DNA of 64,000 bases from a virus (Duplodnaviria > Caudoviricetes): positions 1 to 64,000 of IMG/VR virus record IMGVR_UViG_3300028048_000059. One strand, 5' to 3'. How positions within the stretch are numbered: position 1 is the stretch's first letter; every line of letters begins with the position of its first letter. Below, piece by piece: positions 46 to 17,594 of the stretch. The position numbers and the translations under genes are program-made. The notes below the pieces were generated by a model. The model saw only the letters and a program-made list of their open reading frames with translations. It was not told the DNA's origin and ran no database searches.

Positions 46-185
46 GCGGTTTCCTTTCTGGTTTGTAGTGTTTTCCTTCACTTCATTGATTTAATTGTAT
101 CACAAAGGTGGAGGATAGTCAAGTTAAGATATGATTAAATTATCGCCCGGCCCAAATTTTAACTTGGATTTAACTGAAAAAAGGG

Positions 186-214
186 TTGACAAACAAGGGA
201 ATTTTTGGTATACT
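186..214 (+). promoter_or_regulatory. sigmaA/sigma70-type promoter (one example of the many in the cassette region)
   Basis: TTGACA-N17-TATACT with TG extended -10. Confidence 0.85.
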
Positions 215-263
215 ATTTCCAGAAGCCAAGGAAAAGGCTAAAACACCAGAAAGGGTTTTGATT

Positions 264-590
264 ATGGCTATGAACATGAATGAGATTCGCACCACCGCTC
301 GCCAGATGACCATTGCCGCGCTGATGGACGCGCTGACCGCCAACGATGCCGTCAAGTTTGATGATGCGTCTTTCGCTATCTTGCAGACGGTCGGAGAGCA
401 GGAAGTTTGGACGGAAGTCACCATTAAGTCCAAGTCGTGGAAGGACACCAAGACTTCTAAGGCGTTTGACCCGTATGAGGCCGCGGAAGCTTGGGAAGCG
501 GAGAAGAAGATCAAGGAAGCCGACAAGGCTGCTAAGGCTGCGGAAAAGGCTAAGAAGGTAGCCAAGGCAAAGGAGAAGGAAGGGGAGTAA
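264..590 (+). CDS. Hypothetical protein with Lys/Ala/Glu-rich tail (paralog family A)
   Basis: ATG after AGAAAGG. C-terminus KAAKAAEKAKKVAKAKEKEGE resembles 4247..4579. Confidence 0.8.
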   Translation: MAMNMNEIRTTARQMTIAALMDALTANDAVKFDDASFAILQTVGEQEVWTEVTIKSKSWKDTKTSKAFDPYEAAEAWEAEKKIKEADKAAKAAEKAKKVAKAKEKEGE

Positions 591-667
591 TCCCCTTCTT
601 TTTTTGTTTTGGGATGTTAAAATTGAGTTAAATTTTGGGCCGGCCAAATTCTTAATGGGTTTTTAAC

Positions 668-696
668 TTGACAATTGGTGGCGGCTTTGGTATAAT
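668..696 (+). promoter_or_regulatory. sigmaA-type promoter abutting a palindromic site
   Basis: TTAAC|TTGACA-N17-TATAAT. Confidence 0.9.
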
Positions 697-726
697 ATTA
701 GTGAAATCAAGGGGAGGTACAAGAGA

Positions 727-1086
727 ATGCGTGAAATGGTTATTTATGTGGCGTTTGATGGTGAAGAGTTTAACAATGCAGAGCGTTGTCGTGAGTATGA
801 ACAAGCATTTTCTAATTCACTTATGAAGATAAAAGAAGCCTACACTTTTTATAATTCGAAGGGCGACATTATTCCCATTGCCACTTACGATATGGAAACC
901 ATGCTCGAAGATTTAGAAGCTGCATATCAAGAAAGCGCGAAGATTGTTGTGCGGCACAATGTCCCGCATAGAACTCTTAAATATTTTTATGATACAACGG
1001 GAATCCCGTTGCCGGAAGATGCTGGGATATATAGATATGATTTTAAGAGATATACGTGGGAAAGCGTGTCAGAATATGATTTTTAA
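727..1086 (+). CDS. Hypothetical phage protein
   Basis: GGAGG RBS, own promoter, terminator hairpin AAAGCGTGTC/GACACGCTTT at ~1101-1124. Confidence 0.85.
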   Translation: MREMVIYVAFDGEEFNNAERCREYEQAFSNSLMKIKEAYTFYNSKGDIIPIATYDMETMLEDLEAAYQESAKIVVRHNVPHRTLKYFYDTTGIPLPEDAGIYRYDFKRYTWESVSEYDF

Positions 1087-1196
1087 TAGATATGTGTGGA
1101 AAGCGTGTCAGAATGACACGCTTTAATTTTTTGTTAAAATTTGGGCCGGCGGATAATTTAACATAGCGATAACAAAAGAAAAACCGCCATTGGCGG

Positions 1197-1358
1197 TTAA
1201 TCTACCTTGGCGGTTTTCCGTATGGCGGTAAGCTGCTCAGGAGTAAAGTTGTTATAATATTCGCGTCCTTTATCGCTCAAATAATCCCAATCAATCAGAC
1301 CTACGCTGTAAAGCGCCGCCTCGAACATTTCATAATCCATAATAAAGCGCTCGTTCAT
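1197..1358 (-). CDS. Hypothetical 53-aa protein (not in ORF track)
   Basis: AAGGAG RBS, MNERFIMDYEMFEAALYSVG..., followed by a terminator. Confidence 0.65.
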   Translation of the reverse strand: MNERFIMDYEMFEAALYSVGLIDWDYLSDKGREYYNNFTPEQLTAIRKTAKVD

Positions 1359-1373
1359 AGTTACTTTCTCCTT

Positions 1374-1601
1374 TCAACGTCCTTCTACTCTTTTGTACGC
1401 GCTGACCTGCCTGTATTCGAAGTATTCCTGTGCAGTGATTTCCTTGCCCGAAATCATAAGACGAGTGTGCTTCACCGAGGGCATACGTCGTGCCATGTCG
1501 CAAGCGTCCAACAGATTTTTTGCCTTGAAAGCAAACTTGATTTCCGTGCCGTGACCGGTTCCGCAGTGACCTCTGTGACAAGTTACCATGTAATACTTCA
1601 T
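1374..1601 (-). CDS. Hypothetical basic protein (CHRGHCG motif)
   Basis: GGGAG RBS, own promoter at ~1634-1662. Confidence 0.8.
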   Translation of the reverse strand: MKYYMVTCHRGHCGTGHGTEIKFAFKAKNLLDACDMARRMPSVKHTRLMISGKEITAQEYFEYRQVSAYKRVEGR

Positions 1602-1739
1602 TGTTTTGTACTCCCTTCCTTGTTTGTGAGATTATTATATCATGGGAATGGGATTGTGTCAAGTTAAGAGTACGTTAAGATACCGGCCGGCCCGAAATTT
1701 AACATGGAGATAACAAAAGAAAAAATCGCCTTGCGGCGA

Positions 1740-1931
1740 TTAGTCTTTGTCTTTATGATTGATACCCTTGAAGAGCGGGGGCACGCACCAATAAAGGCCG
1801 TAGAAGATGAAGAAATTGAAGGTTGGAAGATTGAACTCAGGCGCAATGGCGTTGTAAACAAGAGTGGCGACACCTGCAAGGATAGCCTTGACATAAGCGG
1901 CGGCAAACAGATCGACGAGAGCGTCCTTCAT
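1740..1931 (-). CDS. Small membrane protein
   Basis: Two hydrophobic segments, coupled to the upstream gene, terminator follows. Confidence 0.6.
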   Translation of the reverse strand: MKDALVDLFAAAYVKAILAGVATLVYNAIAPEFNLPTFNFFIFYGLYWCVPPLFKGINHKDKD

Positions 1932-1933
1932 GA

Positions 1934-2200
1934 TTATTCCAATCCCCTTTCAATAATCCATGCTTCGAAGTCTTTACATACTTGGTCCCAAAATGGCAGT
2001 TCTACTGGACGTCTATAATCAAGCGCTTCTTGTAACCATGTATATACACATGCTTTGCAAATTTCGGTGACTGACGGCAGTGGCTCGTCGTTTTCTTGTG
2101 CCTCGTCATACATTCCTTCTTTATGATAGAGATAATCTTTGAAGATATCATCAAAATTAATTTTGACAATGATAGAATATTCATTTATATTCTGCATCAT
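1934..2200 (-). CDS. Hypothetical acidic protein
   Basis: CCAGAAAGG RBS element upstream of ATG 2200. Confidence 0.7.
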   Translation of the reverse strand: MMQNINEYSIIVKINFDDIFKDYLYHKEGMYDEAQENDEPLPSVTEICKACVYTWLQEALDYRRPVELPFWDQVCKDFEAWIIERGLE

Positions 2201-2236
2201 AAATCCATGTCCTTTCTGGTGTTGGCTCCCATACAC

Positions 2237-2620
2237 TTACACCCGAAGGGTGTAAGTGCTGGCATTGCGACCGTTGAGATGACGTTCGACTTCATCCTTC
2301 ATCTCATGCAGAAGGACATACTGCACGCGCTGGGTAGGTTCACCCATGGCGTCCGCAAGTTCCTTGACGGTGATACCATTCGGCATACCATTGAACTTGG
2401 CGAAAGTGTCACGCACACGAGGAAGGAAAACTTCCATTTCCTTGGCGCGGGCAATCGCACGCTTTTCCTTGTTGGCAGAATTGCGGCGAGCCGCCTTTTC
2501 CTCGGTAACTACCTGCGACTTGGCAAGCTGGTCACGAATCTTGGCAATGGTGGTGAGGACTTCCGTGTCGGTCGTGTCGAAGTGTTCAAGGACGTAGTTC
2601 AGAGCATCAATTCGGGTCAT
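2237..2620 (-). CDS. Putative winged-helix DNA-binding protein (paralog family B)
   Basis: Coiled coil followed by TVKELADAMGEPTQRVQYVL...ASTYT. Similar to 7530..7859. Confidence 0.65.
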   Translation of the reverse strand: MTRIDALNYVLEHFDTTDTEVLTTIAKIRDQLAKSQVVTEEKAARRNSANKEKRAIARAKEMEVFLPRVRDTFAKFNGMPNGITVKELADAMGEPTQRVQYVLLHEMKDEVERHLNGRNASTYTLRV

Positions 2621-2889
2621 AGCGTTTTCCTCTCTGGTTTTTAGGACTTGTTCCTTGTCCTTTTGTGCCTTTATTATACCACCGATTTTTGTTTCTGTCA
2701 AGGGGTTTGAGTGTTAATTTTTTATTTGGCGTGAGGTGGTGAGCGCCTAATTCTCTTGCCCCTTGACGTATATAATTATATCAGAAGATGTGAGAGTTGT
2801 CAACCATTTTCTATGTAAAGTTTTGGTTAAATTGTGGGCCGGCGCATAACTTAACATAGTTATAATAAAAAAAGAACGCTTGCGCGTTC

Positions 2890-3195
2890 TTAGTAGTCCT
2901 CGCCGCCATAGGGGAACATATACGAGAGGTCATAAGATTCATCGACATAACAACCGCTGTATGGGTCGTAATTGGATTCATCGACATCATCATTAATGTC
3001 GTCTTCATCGGGATCTTCTTCTACGCTATCAATGCCTTGTTCATTGCAGAAGTCCTGAAACAGTTCACGGGTGATGGCATTGACCCAATCGGCATTGTAA
3101 TCATCGGGATTGCACCAAGTTCCAATAGCGCGGCACAGAGTGTAAGCCATGGCGGTCATGATGTCACGAGCAGAAGTTTCAGTGATGGTACGCAT
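2890..3195 (-). CDS. Hypothetical protein with strongly acidic C-terminus
   Basis: Leader and RBS present. Contains EEDPDEDDINDDVDESNYD. Confidence 0.8.
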   Translation of the reverse strand: MRTITETSARDIMTAMAYTLCRAIGTWCNPDDYNADWVNAITRELFQDFCNEQGIDSVEEDPDEDDINDDVDESNYDPYSGCYVDESYDLSYMFPYGGEDY

Positions 3196-3389
3196 GTTAG
3201 TTGCCTTTCTGGTTTGGAAGTGTTTTCCTTCACTTGTTGAGATAAGTATATCATATGGTGTATGTTTTGTCAAGTTAAGAATTTGTGACGCATAATTTCG
3301 CCGCAAGTTTATCCAACCATTATTTGCGGTTTGTCATTGTGGTATCATAATTGTGTGTTATACTATGCTTGAAAGCGAGGGGAACGAAG

Positions 3390-3518
3390 ATGAAAAAAAT
3401 CGCTGAGTTTGTGACTGTTGTTTACTTGATGGCTGGTCTGTTTTCGATTCTGTTGGGGCAGGGCGTTTGGATGGCGGTTTCGGGTGTTGCGGTTGGACTG
3501 TTGGTTATTTGCTCCTGA
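3390..3518 (+). CDS. 42-aa two-helix membrane peptide (not in ORF track)
   Basis: GAGGGG RBS, MKKIAEFVTVVYLMAGLFSILLGQGVWMAVSGVAVGLLVICS. Confidence 0.55.
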   Translation: MKKIAEFVTVVYLMAGLFSILLGQGVWMAVSGVAVGLLVICS

Positions 3519-3628
3519 TGTTAAAGCCGAGTTAAAATCTCGGCCGGCGCGATTCTTAACCATCTTTTAACTTGCATTCTGGCTGAATTGTGGTATAATA
3601 TTCGTAGATGAAGGAAGGAGAGATTCGA

Positions 3629-4159
3629 ATGGATAAGACGATGATTGATGCGGCACGCGATTTGATGAAACAGTTGCTTCCTGAAATCGCTGACATCATG
3701 GACGACATTTGCGAATTGGGACAGTTTTTTGATAAGTATAACTATGAGCATGGCACTGATTATGATGTGCAGTGCGGTAGCGCGCGGATGTGTCTTGTGT
3801 GCGATACTTTCGTCATTAAGTGGGATTATGATTTGACGAGTGTGGACGAAATTGGTGGATGTTGGGATGAGTGCGTGGCATATCAGACGATTAAAGATAG
3901 CCCGTTCGCGTATTTGTTCGCAGAAGCGGTTATGTTTAAGATTGGATGGAATGACTTTGAAGTCATGCCGCGAATTAAGAATGTTGGCTACAAGCCTACT
4001 GCCATTGCGACTTGGTTGACTAATGATGAGTTTCGTTTTGTGACTGATGTTACAAGCGATTTGCATAGTTATAACTGGGGTGTTGTGAATAACAAGCCTT
4101 GCATTATTGACTATGCACTTACGGAAGATGTGCGCGATAGGGCAAGCACCGATTGGTGA
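3629..4159 (+). CDS. Minimal protein-kinase-like fold protein (paralog family C)
   Basis: Motifs GSAR, VIK, E, DLHSYNWG, IIDYA. Own promoter at 3572-3599. Confidence 0.65.
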   Translation: MDKTMIDAARDLMKQLLPEIADIMDDICELGQFFDKYNYEHGTDYDVQCGSARMCLVCDTFVIKWDYDLTSVDEIGGCWDECVAYQTIKDSPFAYLFAEAVMFKIGWNDFEVMPRIKNVGYKPTAIATWLTNDEFRFVTDVTSDLHSYNWGVVNNKPCIIDYALTEDVRDRASTDW

Positions 4160-4246
4160 CTTGCCCTTAGTTAAATATCGGTTAAATTTTGGGCCGGCCG
4201 ATTTTTTAACTTAAATTTAACATGAGAAATAAAAAAAGAAAAGGGG

Positions 4247-4579
4247 TCACTCCCCCTTTTCCTTTTCCTTGGCCTCGCGCGCGGCCTTGTCCTTGGCGGC
4301 TTTCTCCGCACGCTTTGCGGCGGCCTCGGCCTTCTTGGCCTGCTTGCCGTTGTAGTCCGCGACCTCGGCGGCCATGAGTTCCTCGGCAGTCATATCCTCG
4401 CGCTCCTGCGCTACGATGACACCGACACGCGCGTAGCGCTTGTTTCCGTTGATGTCGGTGACGATGACGCCATACTGACGGTCATTGATTTTCTGGAATC
4501 CTTCGATGTTGGCAATGTCGAGAGTGGAGAAAACGGCGGTACGGATAGTGGAATCGACGATAGACTGAGAGTTCTTCAT
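4247..4579 (-). CDS. Hypothetical protein with Lys/Ala/Glu-rich tail (family A)
   Basis: Leader and RBS, tail KAEAAAKRAEKAAKDKAAREAKEKEKGE. Confidence 0.85.
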   Translation of the reverse strand: MKNSQSIVDSTIRTAVFSTLDIANIEGFQKINDRQYGVIVTDINGNKRYARVGVIVAQEREDMTAEELMAAEVADYNGKQAKKAEAAAKRAEKAAKDKAAREAKEKEKGE

Positions 4580-4676
4580 GTGGCGTGCCTTTCTGGTTTG
4601 TGAGGTTTTCCTTCCTCTGTTGTGTATTCATTATAGCATCTTTGTGCTGTAATGTCAAGTTAAGAGTTTGTTAAAG

Positions 4677-4803
4677 GGGAGTGGTGAGTTCTAACCATTC
4701 TTCGCTAATCCATCCAACAGGTTCCACCCTCTGCGTTTGTACGACTTATGCGCCATCACGTACTCGCCTTCGGCTCCGCTTGTGGGTTTCTGTCCCTTCA
4801 ACG
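4677..4803 (-). ncRNA. Candidate structured small RNA
   Basis: Own promoter TTGACA-N17-TAGAAT (4808-4836), no convincing ORF, nested stems ACCC/GGGU, GCG/CGC, GCC/GGC, GUACG/CGUAC. Confidence 0.45.
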
Positions 4804-4944
4804 TTTTTATTCTATCATGGAATCTTGTTTTTGTCAAGTTAAGAATGCGTTAAGATTTGGGCCGGTGGGCTTTTTAACTTGTGCTTAATAAAAAGAAAGA
4901 AGGTGTTGGCCTTCTTCTTTTATTTGATATGATTCCTTTATGAA

Positions 4945-5166
4945 TTATTCATACCAATATATATCAACATCCTCATCGGGATTTATTCCAATCTGTGTAT
5001 AGACAAAATCACCTAAATTATATCTATCAAGAATGTCCCAATCTGCGGCCGTCCTGCTATCTTCGTCTTTTTCCCATGCGGAGAAAAATGCTTTCCATTC
5101 GCCAGAATCTGGAATATTGAATTCACGAGTTTCGTAGATATGATAGCCGAGTTTGATGGTCTTCAT
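4945..5166 (-). CDS. Small acidic hypothetical protein
   Basis: Leader, RBS and own promoter. Confidence 0.8.
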   Translation of the reverse strand: MKTIKLGYHIYETREFNIPDSGEWKAFFSAWEKDEDSRTAADWDILDRYNLGDFVYTQIGINPDEDVDIYWYE

Positions 5167-5326
5167 GTTGCAGTTCCTTTCTGGTTTGAAGGGTTTCCTT
5201 CCCTTTGTTGTAATGTTATTATAGCACGGAAAGCGCTGTGTGTCAAGTTAAAAATCAGTAAAATTCTTGGCCGGCCCATTTTTTAACACAAAAATAACAT
5301 AACAAAAGAGCGCCCGAAGGCGCTCA

Positions 5327-6322
5327 TTAGTATTCGCAATTCCAACCACAGTAGGCCGCTAATTCATTAAGGCGATTCATCACGCTAACAACATATTTCG
5401 TCCTGTCCTCTTTGCTATCGATATACCGTGCCATTGCTTCATACACCGCGCGGCATTCGTCAAAATCGGGAACCTTGCGCCGCTGGCAGAAGTCGTAAGT
5501 AGTTCCCAAATCCCTAAAAGGAAAATACTTAATTCCCATGGTAATCGCGTGACGGTTTGCAATCTTGGACAAAATGAAAGTCTCAATAGTTGCGTCATCA
5601 AGCGCCGTGTGACTTTCGATAAAATCATACTTGTCGCACAAATATCTGTACGTGCTTTCCGCACTGGTCTTAAAGAATGTGCCGGAATTGGTGAACATGT
5701 CATAAGAAATACAATTCTTCTTATAGGACGCATTGTTCAACAGATGGGTAGTTGCAAGTCCCCACAAATCGAACAGAGGATAGCGCTTGCCGCGGAACAT
5801 AAAACCGTCATTATCGAATTCGTTCTTATTTTCCCGAGGCCCATTTACTATGATATTGTAGCAAAGATTGCGCTGCATTTTCTCCCACTCAAAATAATCC
5901 TTGCTATACAGTTTACGGATATACAGTTCCGTAAAGGGGATTGCTTTCTTAAAGTCGAACATAGAATTAAATGCGCCCACGCCATCAATATTTTCAATAT
6001 CGTGCAACCAAATATTCATGACTTCATTCCACGGCTTCACAGTAATTTCGCCGCGTTCAATCATATCAAGATAGATGGGACGCTTTTCTGCATAATATGC
6101 AGTATTGAACACAGACGGCACAGAGAACGTTTCCGCAATAAGAAACTGTTTCTTCTCATAGATATTACCCGCGCGGTCACAGATAGTATAGCCGAAGTCG
6201 TACACAAGAGGACGCGCGATAGCAATCTTCTTTTTGCGTTCAGAATCGCCATTTGCAAGTTCATTCGCAAAAGGCAGAGTGGCGGTTTCGGTGTCAACTA
6301 CACAGTACAGTTTCTTCTTCAT
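5327..6322 (-). CDS. DEDDh 3'-5' exonuclease (DnaQ-like)
   Basis: ExoI VVDTET, ExoII AFNSMFD, ExoIII HTALDD. Confidence 0.85.
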   Translation of the reverse strand: MKKKLYCVVDTETATLPFANELANGDSERKKKIAIARPLVYDFGYTICDRAGNIYEKKQFLIAETFSVPSVFNTAYYAEKRPIYLDMIERGEITVKPWNEVMNIWLHDIENIDGVGAFNSMFDFKKAIPFTELYIRKLYSKDYFEWEKMQRNLCYNIIVNGPRENKNEFDNDGFMFRGKRYPLFDLWGLATTHLLNNASYKKNCISYDMFTNSGTFFKTSAESTYRYLCDKYDFIESHTALDDATIETFILSKIANRHAITMGIKYFPFRDLGTTYDFCQRRKVPDFDECRAVYEAMARYIDSKEDRTKYVVSVMNRLNELAAYCGWNCEY

Positions 6323-6480
6323 TGTTTAATTCCCTTCTGGTTTGTCGAGTGTTTTCCTTCACTTGATGGATACATTATAGCACATTCCGCATCAATATGC
6401 AAGTTAAGAGTTGGTTAAATTTGCGGCCGGCCATAAATTTAACATAAAAATAACGACCATTGTTGTGGTCGTTATTTCTA

Positions 6481-6678
6481 TCAGTACACCGCGACGATTT
6501 CCACTTCATACTCTTCATTGTCATCGGTGATGAAAATGTAAGAGTAATCGTCTTCATCAATGATGGTGCGAATGCCAAAGCCAAGGTAGCCACCAACCGC
6601 GTTGCGTGCTTCTTTCAGAGTTTCGTAAGAGCCATGGACGCCATTCTCGAAGTAATCAGACCGAAGTGCGAAAGTCAT
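6481..6678 (-). CDS. Small acidic hypothetical protein (family D)
   Basis: GAGGAG RBS. SDYF...YETLKEA is shared with 6825..7037. Confidence 0.75.
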   Translation of the reverse strand: MTFALRSDYFENGVHGSYETLKEARNAVGGYLGFGIRTIIDEDDYSYIFITDDNEEYEVEIVAVY

Positions 6679-6824
6679 TTGCTTTTCTCCTCTCGTTGCT
6701 TTCTGGATATATTATAACGCTATTGGTGCGGGGTGTCAAGTTAAATGAAGGTTAAGATCTGGGCCGGCCGCTTTCTTTACGCAAATTTAACATAGAATGT
6801 AAAAGTAAAGACGCTTTCGCGCCT

Positions 6825-7037
6825 TTACCATCCTCGTCTGTCAATGTAGAAGTGGAACTCCTTTTTCAGACACGTGTCGTAGAGCGTCCACACGTCATCG
6901 GATTCCTGCCACAGCCCCGTGATTTCTGGGAACTGGTTGCAGAACTTGAAAATTCCGAGTTCTGCGTCTTCCAGAGTGTGATATACCTCAAAGAACGGAG
7001 AATCATCGAAGTAGTCAGAAGTGACGATGTACAGCAT
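6825..7037 (-). CDS. Small acidic hypothetical protein (family D)
   Basis: Leader and RBS, SDYF...YHTLEDA. Confidence 0.75.
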   Translation of the reverse strand: MLYIVTSDYFDDSPFFEVYHTLEDAELGIFKFCNQFPEITGLWQESDDVWTLYDTCLKKEFHFYIDRRGW

Positions 7038-7134
7038 GGTGTTGCCTTTCTGGTTTTAGAGCGTTCTTCCTTCGCTTGTTGGATATATTGTAACACACAA
7101 TGACATGATTGTCAAGAGTGTGGGATGTTAAAAA

Positions 7135-7398
7135 TTAGCTGTTTGCCACTGCGCACCTGGCAGCGGTAGGTTGCTATCCTAAGCGGTTATTACGTGTCTC
7201 TCTCACTCTCACGGATTTTTGTTCTAATGGGAGTTTTCTCTCCCCGCCCACTTTTCTTGTCTTGGTTGTGGTCGTTGCTGTCTACCTCACCCACCCAGCA
7301 GGATGGTTCCCCTCACGCTCACGCGGGTGACGCGGGCTTTTTTTAGGTGGGCTACCATACGCCTTGCGGCGGCCCTTTGAAGTGTTTCCCCACTTGAC
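7135..7398 (-). ncRNA. Candidate structured ncRNA (~260 nt)
   Basis: Own promoter (-35 at ~7428-7433) abutting a palindromic site. No ORF with an RBS. Multiple hairpins including CGCC-GCAA-GGCG. Confidence 0.55.
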
Positions 7399-7529
7399 GT
7401 ATATATAATATCATAGATTTGGCGATAAGTCAAGTTAAATATATGTAAAAATTTGGGCCGGCCGCATTTTTAACCTAAATTTAACATGCAATGTAAAAAA
7501 AGAAAAGCGCCCTCGGGCGCTTTCTTTTT

Positions 7530-7859
7530 TTACAGTCGCGTGTAGGTGTTGACCTTCTGGTCACGATTCGTCTTGACCTTATCGGCAAGCGCAGTGCGCA
7601 GAAGGTAGTTAAGCTTGGACTGGGAGAACCCTTCCGGCAGTTCCGCTTCGCAAGCGGCGAACAGTTCCTTGGAAGTCTGCGGCTCATCAGTCAGCGCCGC
7701 AAGCACAGTCGGGATCGCGGACTCATACAGCGCCGCGTTCGCCCGCGCCTTTTCGGTAAGCTTCGCCTGTTCCGCTTCCAGTTCAGTCAGCAGAGCGGCA
7801 GTGTCAACGTCAGCGCCATGCAGGTAGGAAATCATGGTTTCGAGAGTGGACTTCTTCAT
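7530..7859 (-). CDS. Putative winged-helix DNA-binding protein (family B)
   Basis: TSKELFAAC...SQSKLNYLL...VNTYT, leader and RBS. Confidence 0.7.
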   Translation of the reverse strand: MKKSTLETMISYLHGADVDTAALLTELEAEQAKLTEKARANAALYESAIPTVLAALTDEPQTSKELFAACEAELPEGFSQSKLNYLLRTALADKVKTNRDQKVNTYTRL

Positions 7860-7998
7860 AGGGCAAAATTCCTTTCTGGTTTTTAAGTGTTTCCCTTCAC
7901 TTGATGTATATATTATATCAGAAGTTCTGTCAGTTGTCAACTATTTTTTGTGTAAAGATTCAGTTAAATTCGCGGCCGGCCGGGTTTTTAACCCGGTC

Positions 7999-8235
7999 TT
8001 AATAGTCCTCGTCGATAGTAGTGCGCTCAATGCACCATATACCATTATCGGCATAGAACGTGTACATTCCAATCTCTGGCTCGATGTTACTGTCTTTGAT
8101 ATGACAGTTGTCATCTACAAGCATACGGCACATTACTGCCGTGGCTTTCTCCATAGAGGAAAATGCGCCAATGATTTGATAACAAAAATCATTCTGTCCC
8201 GTGCCATCGCCCATGCTCAAAATGTAAATGGTCAT
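7999..8235 (-). CDS. Small hypothetical protein
   Basis: AAGGAG RBS, own promoter. Confidence 0.75.
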   Translation of the reverse strand: MTIYILSMGDGTGQNDFCYQIIGAFSSMEKATAVMCRMLVDDNCHIKDSNIEPEIGMYTFYADNGIWCIERTTIDEDY

Positions 8236-8342
8236 ATTGAATATCTCCTTTCCTTTGTTCAAGAACATTATACCATAGAGAATGTTTGTTGTCAAGTTAA
8301 GAATGGGTAAAGTTTTGGGCCGGCCAACTTCTTTACAAGAAA

Positions 8343-8552
8343 TTAACCATATTCATCGAAATCAGATTCAAATGCCTCTTCAAAATCGTCCCATGTCTCA
8401 TAATGGAAATTGAAATCATCGCATTCTTCAATAGGATTTGAAATGCAACAATTTCCCCATTTGTTGATATAAGGACAATCAAATGCCTGTACGGGGCAAC
8501 GAATCGGGTGTCCGTTGTGGAACCCATTGGTTTCTTCAATTCGTTCAATCAT
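8343..8552 (-). CDS. Small Cys-rich acidic protein
   Basis: GGAGG RBS, CP..DCPY...CC...EC. Confidence 0.7.
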   Translation of the reverse strand: MIERIEETNGFHNGHPIRCPVQAFDCPYINKWGNCCISNPIEECDDFNFHYETWDDFEEAFESDFDEYG

Positions 8553-8694: not shown

Positions 8695-8861
8695 GGTCTG
8701 CACCTCCTTGCTTTGTGTATATATTATATCAAACAATATGTGAGAAGTCAAGTTAAATATGGGTTAAAATGTGGGCCGGCCCTAATTTTAACATATGTTT
8801 AACTTGCAAATGAAATGCCAATGTAGTATAATAGTGGTGAAAGAAAGGAAGGGGTAACATT

Positions 8862-9386: not shown

Positions 9387-9477
9387 ATAACGGGGCGAAA
9401 TGCCCCGTTAATTATGGGTTAAAATAAAGGCCGGCCGCATTTTTAACATACATTTAACATTAAAATGAAAAAGAGGA

Positions 9478-9885: not shown

Positions 9886-10021
9886 TCCCTCTCTGGTTTT
9901 AAGATGTTTTCCTTCATCTATCGTAGATAATTATAGCATAACTTCTATAAGAAGTCAAGTAAAATCTATGTTAAAAATTGGACCGGCCATGTTTTTAACA
10001 TGACCTTAACACCCGAGGAAC

Positions 10022-10342
10022 TTAAAGCAGTTGGGGCATTTCTCCTGTGAGAAGTGCGGCAACCATTTCACTTGGCGTGCAATGTGTCACGTCGTCGCCG
10101 TCCCACGGCATACGATACGATTCAACGTGTCCATGCTCAACACCATAAGAACCTCTGTGACAGATTACATCGCCATCTGGGTAATCTGGGAACGTCCACT
10201 TCCATCCATCAAGGCAATGCTCAATCGTGAAGGGGATGCCTTGTTCAATCAGTTGGCGGCAGAACGACTGGGTGGTGGCTTGGATCTGGTTCTTCATAGC
10301 AATCTCATATGCATTCCTGTTTTCCATGTTTTTCAGTCCCAT
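10022..10342 (-). CDS. Hypothetical phage protein
   Basis: AGGAGG RBS, own promoter. Confidence 0.75.
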   Translation of the reverse strand: MGLKNMENRNAYEIAMKNQIQATTQSFCRQLIEQGIPFTIEHCLDGWKWTFPDYPDGDVICHRGSYGVEHGHVESYRMPWDGDDVTHCTPSEMVAALLTGEMPQLL

Positions 10343-10469
10343 CTCATATGTCCTCCTGTTTTTTACTATAATCATTATAGCACAATTTATATCGGGAGTC
10401 AAGTTAAATACTCGTTAAGAAATCGTCCGGCCGCAATTTTAACATAAAATTAATAGCCCTTGCGGGCTA

Positions 10470-10907
10470 TTACAGATTGTACAGTTCGCTCATAATGTGA
10501 TTGGGATGGAACGCGGAACCCGGCCAATTCTCACGGTTTGCCCTACTATCGTCAAACAACAGGTCGGTTTTCTGTGCGTTGCACACAAGTCCCTTGTCCT
10601 TGCCGTACTCAACAATCTTAATGAAATCCCACTCCACGCTGTGAAGGTGCTGCCGCAACCATTTTTCTTTGGCTTTGCGTACTTCATCATTGTAGCTTGC
10701 CGAGCCATTCATTGAGGTCCAACTAATGATACCGAGCTTGTAGCCAGCTTTCTGCAACTTGTTGAGCTTGCGCGCGAGCAGGCTCATATTCAGCATAGGG
10801 GCAGCTTCCAGGTAGGGCCAGACCTCTTCCGCCTGCAATCCGTCAAGCCAGTTTGGAACTGTAAAGAGAGAGGCGATAGTACCGTCCATGTCAAACCAAA
10901 TCGTCAT
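10470..10907 (-). CDS. HAD-superfamily phosphatase (5'(3')-nucleotidase-like)
   Basis: Motif I FDMDGT, motif II ISWT, K, motif IV LFDD. Confidence 0.8.
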   Translation of the reverse strand: MTIWFDMDGTIASLFTVPNWLDGLQAEEVWPYLEAAPMLNMSLLARKLNKLQKAGYKLGIISWTSMNGSASYNDEVRKAKEKWLRQHLHSVEWDFIKIVEYGKDKGLVCNAQKTDLLFDDSRANRENWPGSAFHPNHIMSELYNL

Positions 10908-11037
10908 ATCAGTTACTTCCTTTCGTCATTTCGTGATTTGATTATACCATAGGCAAACCGAAAAGTCAAGTTAAATCGAAGTTAAAATGTCGGCCGGCAG
11001 CTTTCTTAACATTCAGTTTACAAAAAAAAGAAGAGGA

Positions 11038-11265
11038 TTACTCCTCTTCGATGTAGTATGCCAGCGTGCGTCCCAGCTCTGCGTTGCAATTGTAGTAAGA
11101 AATCGTGTTGCACAGCTTGTCGAAATCAATGGAGCTGTCAGCTCCGTCATTGGTGTAGAATCCGCCGAACCACATGGAGAACGGAGATACGTAGCACGGA
11201 CAAATAGCGACCTTCTTGCCAGCGTTGTAGGCGCGACGAGCGACGGACTTGTTAACTTTCTTCAT
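11038..11265 (-). CDS. Hypothetical protein
   Basis: GGAGG RBS, own promoter. Confidence 0.8.
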   Translation of the reverse strand: MKKVNKSVARRAYNAGKKVAICPCYVSPFSMWFGGFYTNDGADSSIDFDKLCNTISYYNCNAELGRTLAYYIEEE

Positions 11266-11402
11266 GGGGTGTTCCCTCCTTCATTTGATGGATACATTAT
11301 ACCATACCAGCGGCGAAAAGTCAATAGGTTGCTGTGTAAAGATTCGGTTAATTTGCGCGCCGGCCTTTTTCTTAACACTGTGTTTACAAAAAAGGGAGCA
11401 GC

Positions 11403-11561
11403 TCACAGCTGCTCCTTATCCTCATAGTAGTCGTGGTACATCATCATGATTCCCAGATCACACCCCTGCTCTGCCATGATGTGAAGCTCGATGACCATCG
11501 GATCCTCCATGCCGCGGTTGCGCGTTACATAGTCGAGGTATTCCTTAATTTCGTTCTCCAT
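11403..11561 (-). CDS. 52-aa acidic protein (family E; not in ORF track)
   Basis: GGAGG RBS, MENEIKEYLDYVTRNRGMEDPMVIELHIMAEQG... Confidence 0.7.
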   Translation of the reverse strand: MENEIKEYLDYVTRNRGMEDPMVIELHIMAEQGCDLGIMMMYHDYYEDKEQL

Positions 11562-11698
11562 TGTGGTGCCTCCCTTGCTTTGATGGATACATTATATCAC
11601 ATCGGTGTATGGCTGTCAATACCTTGGCTGTTAAGTCTGTGTTAAAAAGTTGGCCGGCCATTTTTTTAACATGCAGATAACATAAGAAAAGAGCTGGG

Positions 11699-11860
11699 CT
11701 ATTCGTCCAGCTCGTCATCCATCCAGCTCGCCTCGGCGACGAAGCGCGCCAGCTCGTCGGCGCTTGCGCCGTCCTCGTACATGCGGAACAGTTCGATAAT
11801 GCACGGGTGTTCGAAACCGTAGCTACGGACAGCACTGTCGAGAATCTCCATGGTCTTCAT
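11699..11860 (-). CDS. 53-aa acidic protein (family E; not in ORF track)
   Basis: GGAGG RBS, MKTMEILDSAVRSYGFEHPCIIELFRMYEDG... Confidence 0.7.
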   Translation of the reverse strand: MKTMEILDSAVRSYGFEHPCIIELFRMYEDGASADELARFVAEASWMDDELDE

Positions 11861-12083
11861 TGTGGTTCCCTCCTTCATTTGATGGCATAATTATAGCATA
11901 CGCGGGCACGAATGTCAATAGGGTGTTTGTAAAGATTGGGTTAAGTTTGCGGCCGGCCTCTTTCTTAACGTCCAATTAACTTATGTGTTTTAGGGAAAAG
12001 AAAAACATGGGGCGGCCGCATTTGTAACAGGATCTTAACATTGAAATGGAGATAAAGAAAAACGCCCGAAGGCGTTTTTAAAA

Positions 12084-12263
12084 TTACAGTTCCATATCTT
12101 CGCGGTACTGGTCAAAATCGCGGTAACCAGTGTAGTAATACAAGATGCTTACTGCGGTTTCTTCATTCATGCCGTTAAGGGAAAAAGCGAGATCAAGCGC
12201 GTCACGGTTGTCGGTCACGTAGTCAAGAAGGAAATCATACATGTCGTTGACAGTCATCATCAT
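12084..12263 (-). CDS. 59-aa acidic protein (not in ORF track)
   Basis: AAGGAAGG RBS, own promoter, terminator AAACGCC-CGAA-GGCGTTT. Confidence 0.7.
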   Translation of the reverse strand: MMMTVNDMYDFLLDYVTDNRDALDLAFSLNGMNEETAVSILYYYTGYRDFDQYREDMEL

Positions 12264-12460
12264 TTCTGGGTACCTTCCTTTCGTTCGTTGTGCCTATATT
12301 ATAGCATATGGGATTTCAAATGTCAATAGTTTTTTTTGTTTTATCTTCGAATTTGAAAGTTAAATGGCGGTTAAAAAACGGGCCGGCCATTTTTTTAACG
12401 CAAGTTTAACAAAAGTAATTTTGTGGAATGAAATGGGGCAAGTTGCCTTGCCCCATTCTG

Positions 12461-12610
12461 TTAGTCGTTTATGGGACAGTAGATTTCTTTCACTGTCCAA
12501 CGCCGTTTGGTGAAAGAGTTGCGGAATTCCGCGGCGGCAACCGCCTCTTCGTAAGTGCGATAGTGCGTAACACCTTGAAACCCGCCGCATTCGATGACCC
12601 AATACTTCAT
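12461..12610 (-). CDS. 49-aa protein (not in ORF track)
   Basis: AAGGAGG RBS, own promoter, MKYWVIECGGFQG... Confidence 0.7.
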   Translation of the reverse strand: MKYWVIECGGFQGVTHYRTYEEAVAAAEFRNSFTKRRWTVKEIYCPIND

Positions 12611-12682
12611 GACTTACTTCCTCCTTGCCTTTTGTGATTACATTATACCATAGCGCCGCACGTTTGTCAAGTTAAGATTGCG

Positions 12683-12847
12683 TTATTCGATGTTTCCATC
12701 GTAGATGGTGATCTGTCGTAAATTGAAGTCAACAATCAACTTGCAATTGTTAAAATATTTCGACAGTTCCTCCATGTGATTCAGATCGCGCACAAGCAAG
12801 TAATCAACGTAGCCGTAGTCGGAAGCCTTGTAAATAGTGAACATCAT
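12683..12847 (-). CDS. 54-aa protein (not in ORF track)
   Basis: AAGGAGG RBS, own promoter, MMFTIYKASDYG... Confidence 0.7.
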   Translation of the reverse strand: MMFTIYKASDYGYVDYLLVRDLNHMEELSKYFNNCKLIVDFNLRQITIYDGNIE

Positions 12848-13015
12848 GTTGGGTTACCTCCTTTGTTCTTATGGATACATTATACCATGGGTGGCGTAGG
12901 AAGTCAAGTTAAAGGCACGTTAAGTTTTGGGCCGGCCGAAAATTTAACATACGTTTAACTTTTGAAATGACAAAAAAATGAAACGCGGCGGTTGCCGCGT
13001 TTCGGGATGGGTTGG

Positions 13016-13309
13016 TCACGCCAGCCCGTAGAACTTGCGCCCATGGATGTAGGTGTAGCCGCCATCCTCGGGGAACCAGCCCCACGCCGCCAGCTGGTCG
13101 GGGTCGAACTTGGCGGCGGCTTCCGCGGTCATGACCTCTTCGTAGGTTTCTTCGCGGACGATGGTCAGCAGCCCGTACTTGCGCAGCGTGGAGATAGACG
13201 GCACGGTCGCATTGTGCTCGGTCAGCAGTTTGAGGGTATCGTAGGACACGCCCTCGGTCGGCAGGATCGCGCGCAGGTTGGCAACTTTGATTTCGGTGGT
13301 CTTAGTCAT
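13016..13309 (-). CDS. Hypothetical protein
   Basis: RBS, own promoter, GC-rich codons. Confidence 0.8.
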   Translation of the reverse strand: MTKTTEIKVANLRAILPTEGVSYDTLKLLTEHNATVPSISTLRKYGLLTIVREETYEEVMTAEAAAKFDPDQLAAWGWFPEDGGYTYIHGRKFYGLA

Positions 13310-13633
13310 TGTGGTGTTCCCCTTTCGTTTCGTTCTGTGAACATTATACTACCAAACCTCTGATTTGTCAATCCCTTTTTTGCGTTAAAAGTGTTAAGCT
13401 TTCCGTTTACAAACTTGCCACGAAACATTTACGAAAACTTAACACAAGGGGCGGCGTAGTTCTTTACCAAAATTTAACATTATGGGCGGCGTAGTTCTTA
13501 ATATGGATTTAACATAACGAATTGGATGGGGTATGAAATGATGTTAAGCATGGGTTAAGAAACCGGCCGGCGGTTTCCTTTACATAAATTTAACATTGGA
13601 TTTGAATTAAAAATAAAATCGCCCGAGGGCGAT

Positions 13634-13810
13634 TTAGTTTTCCTCTTCGTCTTCCAATAGTGTCGCAAGTTCAGTACCATCTCTATCAAAAACGGATAAA
13701 AGAGCAAAAATATTTTCTCTATACCACCCACAAGATAACTGTACAATATCATCGTCATGAAAGCGCGCGAGGGATTTCTGCATTTCCTTAACGGTCATTT
13801 CATACTTCAT
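13634..13810 (-). CDS. 58-aa acidic protein (not in ORF track)
   Basis: AAGGAG RBS, MKYEMTVKEMQKSLARFHDDD...EDEEEN, terminator follows. Confidence 0.7.
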   Translation of the reverse strand: MKYEMTVKEMQKSLARFHDDDIVQLSCGWYRENIFALLSVFDRDGTELATLLEDEEEN

Positions 13811-13963
13811 GTTGTTACTCTCCTTTGTTTTTTGTACCTACATTATATCATCACTTATGTGAGAAGTCAAGTTAAAGTGCGGTTAAAAAATTGACCGGCC
13901 GAAATTTTAACGCACATTTAACATTGCATTTCTATACAAAAAAAAATCGCGTTTCCGCGATTT

Positions 13964-14188
13964 TTATTCGGTGATGACGCCCCAATATTCTACTACCACC
14001 CGAGGCGTGCCGTCCTGTTCCTTTGCTGTGTCAATCCACCATGCCGTCCTGCTCATGATGTCCTTCTTCAAGTCCTGCGCGATCTCGTTCGCCCTCTCTT
14101 CCGAGATAGTCCATGCCGCATGCCGCCATCCTGCGGGGCGTCCATCTTCTACCGTAACCGCGGCTGTCTTTACTTCGTACAGTTTCAT
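13964..14188 (-). CDS. Hypothetical protein
   Basis: GAGGG RBS, own promoter, terminator. Confidence 0.75.
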   Translation of the reverse strand: MKLYEVKTAAVTVEDGRPAGWRHAAWTISEERANEIAQDLKKDIMSRTAWWIDTAKEQDGTPRVVVEYWGVITE

Positions 14189-14326
14189 ATTGTTCCCTCT
14201 CTTTCTGTTTTGTGATTTTATTATACCACTGGGTTTCGGGTTTGTCAAGAGGTTTCTAAGTTAAAATGTGATTAAGGAGTAGCCCTCCCAAATGTTAAGT
14301 TTGGGTTAAGGTGTGAGCCTTGCGGC

Positions 14327-14695
14327 TCACACCTCCCCATACCACCAGTCGCCGACGTTCTCTTCACGCTCCGTCTCATTGTCTTCGTCTTCCTCGTGCC
14401 ACCGATCGATAACCGCAGGCACTCCGTAGTCATACAGCGTATCATACAGCGCGTCACCGTCGTCGGTGAACAGCAGCTCGTCGCCGCGGTAGACGGCAAC
14501 CTCGCCGACGGTGGTGTAGCTTGCCAGCGCTTCGAAAACGTCGGTGCAATCCTCTTCGTACAGGTTTTCGGTGTACCAGCTCCCGAGGGGCGCCGTCACC
14601 ACGTCGAAGTAGCTCCCGTCACCATCAGGAAGCGTGTCCAGCAGGCGGCCATCCGCGACGCGCACGAGGCGCAGGGTCTTGTCATTGTTCGTCAT
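14327..14695 (-). CDS. Acidic hypothetical protein
   Basis: AAGGAGG RBS, own promoter. Confidence 0.8.
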   Translation of the reverse strand: MTNNDKTLRLVRVADGRLLDTLPDGDGSYFDVVTAPLGSWYTENLYEEDCTDVFEALASYTTVGEVAVYRGDELLFTDDGDALYDTLYDYGVPAVIDRWHEEDEDNETEREENVGDWWYGEV

Positions 14696-15127
14696 TGGGG
14701 TTCCCTCCTTGTCTTTGATGTATACATTGTACCACAACCAGCCCGATTTGTCAATTAAGAAGTTGTAAACTATTTATGACAAAAATATGACAGTTTGTCA
14801 CACTTCTGTAACAATTGCGGTTAATGAAACAGTTACGAAACATTAACGAAAACTTAACATGCGGGGCGGCGTGTTATTTAATCGAAATTTAACATGGGGC
14901 GGCAGATACGCTAACGAAAATTTAACATTAAGTTTTCGTTAAAAAATGGGCCGGCCAAAAGTTTAACGTAAGTTTAACTTAGGTGGGCGGCGTTTTCTTT
15001 AACGAAAATTTAACATGCTATGGCGGCCGATTTCTTAACAGAAATTTAATATGTTAAAAAAGGTGGCGGCTTACGTCGTCACCTTTTTATCGCAGCCGAA
15101 ATGCCAGTATTGGTACTGGCGAATCGG

Positions 15128-15304
15128 TTAGTTTTCGTAGCCCTTGAAGAACTTGTCCAGCTCGTAATTATCGTCGGTCAGCTTGTAGACCTGCGTCAGA
15201 CGACGCTGTGCGGCGATAAGGGTTTCGATGGAGGCGTCCACAGTGGCGGCGAGGTAATCGTCGAGAGCGGTGTAGCGGTTGCCGGTGGTCAGGTAGTTCA
15301 TCAT
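15128..15304 (-). CDS. 58-aa hypothetical protein
   Basis: AAGGAGG RBS, own promoter. Confidence 0.75.
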   Translation of the reverse strand: MMNYLTTGNRYTALDDYLAATVDASIETLIAAQRRLTQVYKLTDDNYELDKFFKGYEN

Positions 15305-15650
15305 TTTAGGTTCCTCCTTGCTTTTGATGGATACATTATACCATAGGCAGGCAGGAATGTCAATTAAGAAATGGTAAACTATTTGTGACAAAAATATGAC
15401 ATTTGCGGTCATAAAAAAATAATGAAAATTTAACAATCCGGGGCGGCACGTTTCTTAACTGAAATTTAACACACGGGGCGGCTGGCTTTTTAACGCAAAA
15501 TTAATAGTTAATTTTGCGTTAAGGAATCGGCCGGCCGAAAATTTAACGCAAGTTTAACATTGGAGATTTGGGAATGTCTTAACATAAATTTAACATACGT
15601 GGGCGGCGGATTTTTTAACATGAATTTAATATGTTAAAAAATGAGGTGGC

Positions 15651-15917
15651 TTACGCCACCTCGTACCATTCTTCGTCGTAACCGCTGCGGTAGGTGTTGC
15701 CGGTGTAACCGTCTTTCAGGTGTTCGTACGGCTTTTCCCAGTCGAAATTGCTTTCTTCGAGCTTTTCCGCGGTGTTCATCACCTTCTTAGCTTTGTCAAC
15801 GATAGCCCACTGGGCGTCCTTGGCTTCGCGGGTGGTCATTTCGCCCACCTTGCAAAGCGCCGCGTACATGATAGCCCATGCCTCTTTGCTGGTGAGATTG
15901 GTCAGATTGTTCATCAT
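15651..15917 (-). CDS. Hypothetical protein
   Basis: AAGGAGG RBS, own promoter. Confidence 0.8.
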   Translation of the reverse strand: MMNNLTNLTSKEAWAIMYAALCKVGEMTTREAKDAQWAIVDKAKKVMNTAEKLEESNFDWEKPYEHLKDGYTGNTYRSGYDEEWYEVA

Positions 15918-16291
15918 TTTTGTTTCCTCCTTCGTTTTGTTCTGTGAACATTATACCACAAAGATCTGGGATTGTCAACCCCTTTTTGAGATGTTTAACA
16001 ATTTTAACATTGGGTGCCGGTGGTTTTCTTTTCTGAAATTTAACGCACGCAATGGGTTAAAAAAATTTAATTAAAATTTAACATTGGAGGGCGGCGAGAT
16101 TCTTTACGTAAATTTAACACAGAGGGGCGGCGGTATTCTTTGCACAAATTTAACACATCTAGTTAGTTAGGGTAAACTAACTGGGGCGGCGGTTCCCGTA
16201 ACGAAAATTTAACATAGTTAAATTTTCGTTACGAAACGGGCCGCCCGAGGATGTTAAATTTGTGTAAAAAAATAAACCGGTGGTGCCGCTA

Positions 16292-16630
16292 TCAGCGGCG
16301 CCATCCGGTTTTCCAAGAGTAGTCATCGTAATACTCTTGGGTGATTTCGTCGTACTGGTCCAGCATGATTCTCAGTTCCTGCACGGTGCAGGTGGTGGTG
16401 GTTTCGAACGCGGCGAAGTGCAGGAACAGCAGGTCGTTCGGGTCGTACTGGGTCTTGCAGATCTCGATGAACAGGTCGGACAGGTCAGAGGGCTCAGCTC
16501 CCTGAGCTGGGTCGAAAAAGGTCAGCGGGCTTTCCGGCGCAAGCGGCTCAAAGTCGTCGTTGTAGACGTCGCAGAGGTCGTACAGGGTGGCGCCGTTGGC
16601 GGTGGTGAGCGTGATGTTCTGGAACTTCAT
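16292..16630 (-). CDS. Acidic hypothetical protein
   Basis: AAGGAGG RBS, own promoter. Confidence 0.8.
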   Translation of the reverse strand: MKFQNITLTTANGATLYDLCDVYNDDFEPLAPESPLTFFDPAQGAEPSDLSDLFIEICKTQYDPNDLLFLHFAAFETTTTCTVQELRIMLDQYDEITQEYYDDYSWKTGWRR

Positions 16631-17594
16631 GGGATTTACCTCCTTGCCTTTGATGATTTGATTATACTACAAAAAGCCCCATTTGTCAATGACTTTTGTG
16701 TGACGAAATTGTTACATTTTTCGGGATTTTTGTCATAGAAAATTATTGCAAATTTAACACGGAGGGCGGCGTGGATCTTAATGGAAATTTAACCGAGGCA
16801 GTTAGTTAGTGTAAACTAACTCTGGGCGGCCAGATCCTTAACCCAAATTTAACATGCGTAGTAGTGCATGGAAAATAGAGTTAGTTAGTGTAAACTAACT
16901 CCATACCACATGCGTATAGTCGAAGTTAGTTAGTGTAAACTAACTCTGCACTACATGCAAGGAATTAGAGTTAGTTAGGGTAAACTAACTCTGCACGACA
17001 TGCCAGTAATTAGAGTTAGTTAGTATAAACTAACTCTGCACCACATGCGAATGATTGTGGTTAGTTAGTGTAAACTAACTCCATAGTGTGGGTGGATAAT
17101 TGGAGTTAGTTAGTGTAAACTAACTCTCACGTGGATGGGTGGAGAAAGTGAAAGTTAAAGTTGGGTTAAATTTTTGGCCGGCCAAATTTTTAACGTAAGT
17201 TTAACTTTCATTAGTCATTGCAAATACAATGCAGTTAGTTTATACTAACTAACTGCATTTTGGTGTGAGCAAATATGTAGTTAGTTTATCCTAACTAACT
17301 GGTTTTAGTGTGGGAATAAAAAGAGTTAGTTAGTGTAAACTAACTATTTTTCGTATAGAAATAAACAAAGTTAGTTAGTGTAAACTAACTATTTTTATAC
17401 TGATAATAATGTGAGTTAGTTAGTATAAACTAACTGAGGGCGGCTCGTTTTTTAACCGAAATTTTACTTTGTAAAATTTCTGTTAAGGTTTGCGCCGCCT
17501 ATCCGTGTTAAGTTTAGGTTAATTTTTATGGCAAAAATTTAACCGAACTTCTTGGTTAAAGTTCGGTTAAGAAACCAACCGGCTGACTGGTATC

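Follow-up and report, generated by a model that had tools for sequence, protein, structure and literature searches.

What is the role of a palindromic site that recurs between the small early genes of a large phage? The site lies in IMG/VR record IMGVR_UViG_3300028048_000059, the 157,489-bp genome of a cattle-rumen phage, whose first 64 kb (the window) is the stretch analysed here. A sequence-only reading of the window had counted about 29 such sites and proposed that they are junctions at which self-contained gene cassettes are gained, lost, duplicated or inverted, with a purely regulatory role as the fallback. On the evidence below, we lean towards a combination of the two: the site would be a protein-bound dyad that forms part of the early-promoter architecture, and it would also be the crossover point at which units are exchanged.

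The dyad site and its promoters

Aligned sites take the form GTTAA-N6-GTTAA-N6-GGCCGGCC-N6-TTAAC-N6-TTAAC, in which the conserved positions are perfectly dyad-symmetric. The palindrome of two-arm TTAAC halves around a GGCCGGCC core stands as first described, its length being 52 bp, with N6 spacers, rather than about 55 bp. The window contains 18 exact copies of the core, where 0.36 would be expected by chance, and the whole genome contains 20, every copy lying at 638-17176 or at 155970/156830. Genome-wide scanning with a position weight matrix for the half-site (cut-off >8 bits), a check that the earlier reading had proposed, returned 113 half-sites against 0 in a shuffled genome, and only 4 of the 113 fall beyond a single early zone that runs from 155.9 kb to the end and on through 1-21.5 kb. 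There are 31 full dyads, 28 of them within the window (close to the number first counted), with about 50 half-sites besides. Key positions are conserved while spacer bases vary, as had been noted, and the C of TTAAC is invariant in 39/40 half-sites. Complementarity between the left and right spacers of one site is 0.40, compared with 0.37 between different sites. Invariant key positions combined with variable, non-complementary spacers point to a DNA site bound by protein and not to a hairpin; a hairpin or RNA reading was rejected because the spacers do not pair, and by the same measure the sites do not form the folded, imperfect hairpin of the attC type.

The dyads punctuate units of regular build, in which site, promoter, ribosome-binding site, open reading frame (ORF), terminator and next site follow one another in the order first described, including the + strand units at 264, 727, 3390, 3629 and 8862. 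A near-consensus TTGACA-17-(TG)TATAAT promoter is found on one arm at 22/31 dyads, and both arms carry one at sites 149 and 8778. The first 20 kb contains 20 perfect (12/12) TTGACA-17-TATAAT promoters, most with an extended -10, together with 55 terminator-like hairpins, and these promoters and hairpins alternate with the small genes.

Promoter and dyad are held in helical register. The composite TTAAC-N6-TTAAC-TTGAC (one mismatch allowed) occurs 16 times where 0.02 are expected, and the distance from the -35 start to the dyad centre is 26 bp at 16 promoters, 36-37 bp at six and 58 bp at one, an offset of 26 meaning that the outer TTAAC arm directly adjoins TTGACA. Relatives were collected as 25 IMG/VR loci found via the terminase protein (58-61% identity) and a further 23 stretches found via the site pattern. 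Of 221 GGCCGGCC cores in relatives, 152 have a strong promoter, and the offsets peak at 26 (69 cases), 36-37 (30), 47-48 (18) and 58-60 (5). The phase statistic in these relatives is 0.67 at 10.5-11 bp, compared with 0.04 for random anchors, and the dyad-promoter distance is phased at ~10.7 bp. One orthologous unit carries a 10-bp indel that shifts its promoter from offset 26 to 37. Assuming the usual placement of the -35, the dyad centres would lie approximately 61.5, 72, 82.5 and 93.5 bp upstream of the transcription start. None of the 27 strong promoters found beyond the early zone has TTAAC arms within 60 bp, which makes the arms a marker of one promoter class rather than something that host promoters share in general.

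The order dyad, arms, TTGACA is kept in all relatives, whereas the core varies between GGCCGGCC, ACGT inside a TTAATTA-type dyad, and CCGG or CCCGGG, and these types are scattered over the terminase tree. Some relatives have, in place of one half of a GGCCGGCC site, either a 22-bp palindrome of AGTTAG type or a palindrome of CACTTTA type; both types also form separate arrays in the window. The system is widespread in rumen phages of 165-184 kb, and its specificity types are interchangeable. Phasing, restriction to one promoter class and lineage-specific cores together argue for a protein-binding operator coupled to RNA polymerase, and the regulatory role originally kept in reserve has become the best-supported primary function. 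The sites are placed along the window as follows.

123..174: full dyad with core GCCCGGCC (site 149) at a divergent junction; promoters on both arms, with the - strand -35 at 117-122 and the + strand -35 at 186
616..667: full dyad; + strand promoter with its -35 at 668, adjoining the right arm; terminator of gene 264-590 to the left
1122..1173: full dyad (site 1148) without promoter; convergent, between terminators 1100-1124 (+) and 1182-1198 (-)
1663..1714: full dyad adjoining a - strand promoter (offset 26) that drives the conserved 75-residue gene 1374-1601
2815..2866: full dyad; - strand promoter at offset 37, one helical turn farther out
3520..3571: full dyad; + strand promoter for gene 3629-4159
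4170..4221: full dyad (site 4196) without promoter at a convergent junction; carries a 93-residue unit in its core in strain L067
4838..4870, - strand: strong half-site with core GGCCGGTG, adjoining a - strand promoter, within a hypervariable spot (4663-5242) whose units differ from strain to strain
5247..5298: full dyad adjoining a - strand promoter
6403..6454: full dyad; - strand promoter (TTGCAT) for the 331-residue gene 5327-6322
6740..6791: full dyad adjoining a - strand promoter
7434..7485: full dyad; - strand promoter heading an apparently ORF-less unit at ~7130-7400
7952..8003: full dyad; - strand promoter at offset 37
8296..8347: full dyad adjoining a - strand promoter
8752..8803: full dyad (site 8778) at a divergent junction; promoters on both arms
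9407..9458: full dyad (site 9433) without promoter; convergent, after + strand gene 8862-9386 and before the terminator of 9478-9879
9959..13922: ten more full dyads in a row; a - strand promoter accompanies nine of them at offset 26, 36-37 or 58 (centres 9985, 10429, 10996, 11362, 11656, 11955, 12385, 12934 and 13897), whereas dyad 13569, with two half-sites before it, lacks one
14864..15050: a full dyad (centre 14953) with two half-sites on either side, clustered at a period of ~35 bp, 110-300 bp upstream of promoter 14754
15441..15640: second such cluster, around full dyad 15533
16089..21500: ORF-poor zone, ~31% GC at 18-20 kb, with dense half-sites GGGCGGCG-N6-TTAAC-N6-TTAAC in direct, head-to-head and tail-to-tail arrangements
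17154..17205: full dyad (17180) without promoter, in the middle of an array of 22-bp palindromes
20447..20911, - strand: 154-residue protein without known relative, candidate core-binding factor

A second class of consensus promoters follows repeated TGACA/TGTCA motifs at 14740-14800, 15350-15410, 16690-16740 and 20990-21050. These have no adjoining dyad, and half-site clusters lie 100-300 bp upstream.

Exchange of units at the dyads

Gene order and orientation vary among the relatives, and comparison with them bears out the claim that the sites are junctions of unit gain, loss and inversion. In strain L067, the GGCCGGCC core of site 4196 is the exact insertion point of a 93-residue gene that brings its own promoter. 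The insert is flanked by the old left half-site and a GGCCGGCC on one side and by a GGCCGGCC and the old right half-site on the other, such that the new arms are inside, the old half-sites outside and identity is limited to the 8-bp core. Among distant relatives, three unrelated left modules adjoin one identical core and right module, and a dyad contains the boundary of one inversion.

Breakpoints of homology show a 2.3-3.8 fold enrichment in the 30 bp around dyad centres, and 41% of the switch points inferred are no more than 10 bp from the centre of the core (17.5% if uniform); both the breakpoint counts and the switch-point pairs include non-independent pairs. Where only one flank of a site pair is homologous and the other unrelated (78 pairs), the spacers of the near half-site are 71% identical and those of the far half-site 50%, over a background of 33%. 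The proposed check of whether breakpoints in aligned relatives fall in the cores, which strains at ~90% identity allow, is borne out in part: breakpoints are enriched at or near the core, but many lie at arms or at the -35. The unit swaps at 4663-5242 and 17543-17819 end just past an arm or at a -35, one unequal crossover is located in the promoter-leader of tandem paralogues, and one indel (1955-2192), inside an operon, is associated with no site or motif at all.

Different units share a median longest exact match of 10 bp, so that any exchange must rely on short conserved motifs. All three convergent junctions in the window (1148, 4196 and 9433) keep a promoterless dyad and the divergent junctions share one dyad between two promoters, which is the arrangement that exchange or inversion at the sites would produce.

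Strain L067 also contains two free-standing HNH (NUMOD4) endonuclease genes between early units (11961-12494 and 14996-15478 in the coordinates of that locus), which are absent from the other strains and from the present genome. On the reverse strand of L071, at ~3300-3480 (corresponding to window 4674-5242, in the hypervariable spot), there is a putative tRNA-like unit ending in CCA.

Candidate factors and rival explanations

Each half of the dyad could offer three contacts one helical turn apart, namely GGCC, TTAAC and TTAAC, and a protein or protein assembly would bind the 52-bp dyad upstream of near-consensus host sigma-A-type promoters. Such a lineage-specific, phage-encoded factor might act on ~25 early promoters together, and would most likely time them or shut them off rather than activate them, because promoters so near consensus need no activator. 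The phage's general short-homology recombination would gain, lose, swap or invert units with the dyads as preferred crossover points, a preference suggested by the presence of the same motif at every boundary and by the promoter and terminator that each unit owns. These crossovers would need no dedicated recombinase; general recombination and repair functions are encoded by the phage in the form of AAA_24 and RecJ-like proteins.

Tyrosine recombinases (PF00589) are missing both here and in five relatives of 96-100% completeness (two of them with terminal repeats), with the control genomes all positive; serine recombinases of the resolvase/invertase type (PF00239) are absent from the same six genomes. 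The lack of a recombinase first noted for the window thus extends to the whole genome. Together with the many breakpoints off the core and the indel without a site, this speaks against the integron-like or pdif-like system that the sequence-only reading had raised, and the absence of both enzyme types argues instead for a regulatory cassette system of the promoter-stem-loop (PeSL) kind, which that reading had also named and which is the closest known analogue.

In the PeSL cassettes of T4-type phages (Arbiol et al. 2010, PMC2839356; Comeau et al. 2014, PMC4122927), composite promoter-terminator motifs lie on either side of genes of unknown function and mediate indels with no dedicated enzyme involved. 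Mini-circles that arise through exchange between adjacent motifs are a further feature of the PeSL type. The present phage is alike in the terminator and strong host-type early promoter that flank small genes in a plastic region, in units that two motifs flank in one phage where a relative has a single chimeric motif (here L067 at site 4196), and in having no dedicated recombinase. Motif-bounded indels or replacements are likewise found, at site 4196, 4663-5242 and 17543-17819, with 1955-2192 as the exception. The relationship is nevertheless one of analogy and not of homology, in that this is not a T4-type myovirus but a phage that is SPbeta-like in capsid and packaging. It also has an additional 52-bp dyad, with invariant arms, an 8-bp GC core and a fixed helical phase with the promoter; its core type changes between lineages; and some of its crossovers map to the 8-bp core, as opposed to the ~100 bp of diffuse similarity used by PeSL.

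Two families of phage operator are also instructive. In Bacillus phage SPbeta, the SPBRE operators (a 15-bp motif at ~10 sites in a temperate phage) are bound by the master repressor MrpR, or YopR (PMC10516654). Like the dyads, they are a short repeated element found at numerous intergenic promoter regions, and SPbeta too is a large siphophage, distantly related to the present one; the logic by which one protein, MrpR, acts as global regulator of all sites is the same as that proposed here. As for a multi-operator regulon, 31 dyads are present, 22 of them with promoters in register and all of one promoter class. The differences lie in the number and length of the sites (31 dyads of 52 bp plus ~50 half-sites) and in the missing integrase, and an MrpR-type protein of tyrosine-recombinase fold was not detected in the genome. 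Stoperators, known from Cluster A mycobacteriophages, are asymmetric 13-14 bp sites that follow the direction of transcription, occur genome-wide and are bound by a monomer (PMC9283540, PMC6550527). Both stoperators and dyads occur in dozens of copies in short intergenic gaps, including promoterless places, and both change site specificity with phage lineage, but the dyads are symmetric, 52 bp long, promoter-phased and restricted to the early zone.

Other resemblances are more limited. The class I activator CAP is found at -61.5, -71.5, -82.5 and -92.5, and the dyad centres fall at the same helically phased positions. The likeness is in geometry only, as the promoters here are already consensus and there is no CAP-like protein or site. 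Integron attC and pdif sites share with the dyads a site at each boundary of a small unit, both orientations and insertion exactly at the core, but here there is no integrase, no Xer-type site and no attC-like hairpin, and the promoter is phased to the site. The dif/Xer site measures 28 bp, with two 11-bp Xer arms and a 6-bp spacer, as compared with 52 bp, TTAAC arms and an 8-bp GC core in the dyad, which does not have the pdif form. A host Xer site does not fit either, because the core differs between phage lineages.

If a phage-encoded protein reads the core, a candidate is the 154-residue protein, since its family was found only in genomes with GGCCGGCC cores. All genomes with GGCCGGCC clusters have a member of the family, located each time at the edge of the cluster, and two complete genomes without any GGCCGGCC lack it and have a 178-residue family instead. 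The core types thus track two alternative gene families, but the genes are physically linked to the sites and these contrasts are not independent. The predicted structure of the 154-residue protein reached a pLDDT (predicted local distance difference test) of 44 from 9 sequences and 95.6 from 50 sequences, and in the model the invariant residues E96, D120, Q129 and K131 would fall in a helix-strand-strand arrangement. Searches of the Atlas with this model matched only unnamed viral clusters. An early guess that the protein is a PD-(D/E)XK nuclease was not borne out, no known fold being matched; a 181-residue protein beside the terminase gene proved to be unrelated to either the 154- or the 178-residue family; and an OmpR/PhoB-type regulator, considered for the 11-bp direct repeats, was ruled out by the absence of PF00486.

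Several results weigh against an operator that doubles as a crossover point for general recombination. Nine of the 31 dyads have no promoter, including the well-conserved 1148, 4196 and 9433 between convergent terminators, which a pure operator model does not require. The association of the 154-residue family with the core is explained equally well by physical linkage in one exchanged module, the protein has no family match, and its model has no fold match in the PDB (Foldseek; VIA-align best Z 2.3) or BFVD. General recombination does not usually reach the precision of crossovers that fall exactly in an 8-bp core where nothing else is identical, and the non-independence of some pairs bears on the breakpoint and switch-point statistics.

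This precision is one argument for a dedicated cassette system, in which an undescribed recombinase or site-specific nuclease, for example the 154-residue protein, would cut or exchange strands in the palindromic GGCCGGCC core. As with integrons or pdif modules, any site could then take up, release or invert a circular unit. Such a system would account for a unit indel exactly in the core with only 8 bp of identity, for three different modules adjoining one core, for the single site at each junction, including all three convergent ones, and for the enrichment of switch points at the core. It would also suit the strict co-occurrence of the 154-residue family with the GGCCGGCC core at the cluster edge, and the arrangement of E96, D120, Q129 and K131 recalls nuclease motifs. 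We consider it unlikely, given that six genomes contain no tyrosine or serine recombinase, that many breakpoints lie at arms, -35 or promoter-leader instead of the core, that helical phasing to promoters is not predicted, and that the 154-residue model matches no known nuclease or recombinase fold. A joint claim, that a small lineage-specific protein whose fold has no known match binds the dyad core, controlling early promoters and also cutting or exchanging DNA there (the 154-residue family for GGCCGGCC and another family for ACGT/CCGG cores), is doubtful to a similar or slightly greater degree. Under it, the early region would be an array of promoter-bearing cassettes, actively reshuffled and with interchangeable half-sites.

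Two further explanations were considered. One oligomeric DNA-binding protein could give the dyads a structural or insulating role, either as a stoperator-like roadblock that stops read-through between units or as an iteron-like initiator that binds direct half-site arrays in the AT-rich 16-21.5 kb and inverted half-sites at promoters. In its favour are the promoterless dyads between terminators and the direct half-site arrays, which repeat every ~35 bp where ORFs are few and GC is 31%; the same half-site also occurs in direct and inverted arrangement, as it does with plasmid Rep proteins. However, each unit already has an intrinsic terminator, likely replication modules are located elsewhere in the genome (HTH_36 and DUF5659 matches), and among the Pfam families listed in aggregated scans of 132 proteins none is Rep-like or ParB-like, making this role distinctly improbable. 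The dyad might alternatively be an extended promoter element that needs no dedicated factor, its phased TTAAC arms and A/T-rich spacers constituting UP-like (upstream promoter element-like) or curved DNA read by the alpha subunits of host RNA polymerase to give very strong early promoters. The arms do lie at ~-40 and -51, where UP subsites are found, adjoining the -35, and they are conserved in all lineages while cores change; in Firmicutes, promoters are known to be activated by phased A/T tracts that lie upstream of them. This explanation is very unlikely nonetheless: 27 other strong promoters of the genome have no arms, the C of TTAAC is nearly invariant, arms are also found promoter-distally, in promoterless dyads and in long promoterless arrays, and the palindromic core is left unexplained.

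Early regions of large phages hold most host-takeover genes of unassigned function and are their most changeable part; here, that variability would have a visible sequence basis in one short symmetric site, phased to promoters and reused as a point of whole-unit exchange. The combined operator and crossover reading points to small uncharacterised proteins as candidate cognate factors, and provides a testable model both for the coordination of dozens of early promoters in a virulent Gram-positive phage and for the way in which regulatory motifs direct the shuffling of genes in phages other than the T4 group. For gut Clostridia, the strong consensus promoters and their portable operator could be of use as parts for controlling expression. 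No literature linking GGCCGGCC to phage promoters was found.

Genome setting and other repeats

Relatives at ~90% nucleotide identity come from cattle-rumen assemblies, and two relatives continue unbroken from the last base of the contig into window position 117. We conclude from this join that the genome is closed and that its first ~110 nt (window 1-116) are a mis-joined paralogous repeat. Bases 1-163 match 156686-156848 at 92.7%, but a clean circular overlap of the contig ends was rejected on account of that repeat. Late genes run rightward from 22.7 kb, and replication and other genes run leftward from 157 kb down to 62 kb. Between them, the zone from 155.9 kb to the end and 1-22 kb holds small leftward-transcribed genes followed by an ORF-poor, repeat-rich stretch. 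The capsid and packaging genes show a distant likeness to SPbeta (a capsid match and the YonB/YonD/YonG families). The phage is an SPbeta-like siphophage without integrase, and its host is Gram-positive-like. Two contigs (L072 and L073) are binned with an Acutalibacteraceae metagenome-assembled genome and carry 7 and 9 arm-promoter motifs, respectively, plus exact dyads. This hints at Acutalibacteraceae as a possible host family, or else at binned phage.

Megablast of 1-20 kb against deposited phages gave no match, and Pfam and PHROGs gave almost none for the early proteins. The two largest of these, of 331 residues (5327-6322) and 249 residues (genome 156017-156766), are paralogues that both match phrog_20187 and, with the repeated bases 1-163, substantiate the dispersed paralogs of the first reading. 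The 249-residue protein also matches, weakly, a polymerase exonuclease subunit family. The most conserved early protein is a Cys/His-rich one of 75 residues (1374-1601, - strand), with 27 related loci at up to 83% identity and, by a weak match of features (0.86), a possible link to RpoY, the family of the epsilon subunit of RNA polymerase. ORF-less units had also been proposed; one apparent case is the unit at ~7130-7400, and no tRNA or Rfam family was matched in 1-23 kb.

Other repeats accompany the dyads. The 22-bp palindrome AGTTAGTTAG-N4-AACTAACT is present in ~14 copies at 16161-18232, many at a 45-bp period, around dyad 17180, and it replaces one half of GGCCGGCC sites in L011, L012 and L017. 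Long near-perfect palindromes at 16184-16250, 17438-17500, 17900-17965 and 18344-18405 consist of tail-to-tail half-sites (core-arms/arms-core); their spacers, unlike those of the dyads, are complementary, and they could fold. The GC-only 8-bp palindrome GCGGCCGC is separately enriched, with 38 copies genome-wide, of which 34 lie beyond the early zone, in a distribution complementary to that of GGCCGGCC (examples in the window at 9548, 12012, 18728, 19666, 35516 and 47929). Three further repeat families occupy 21150-21400, 21500-21610 and 20315-20380: GCAGCTCGCG-N5-TTAAC-N6-TTAAC in six copies that recur every 44 bp, repeats of the CATGGTAAAG type, and a microsatellite of (ATGT)n.

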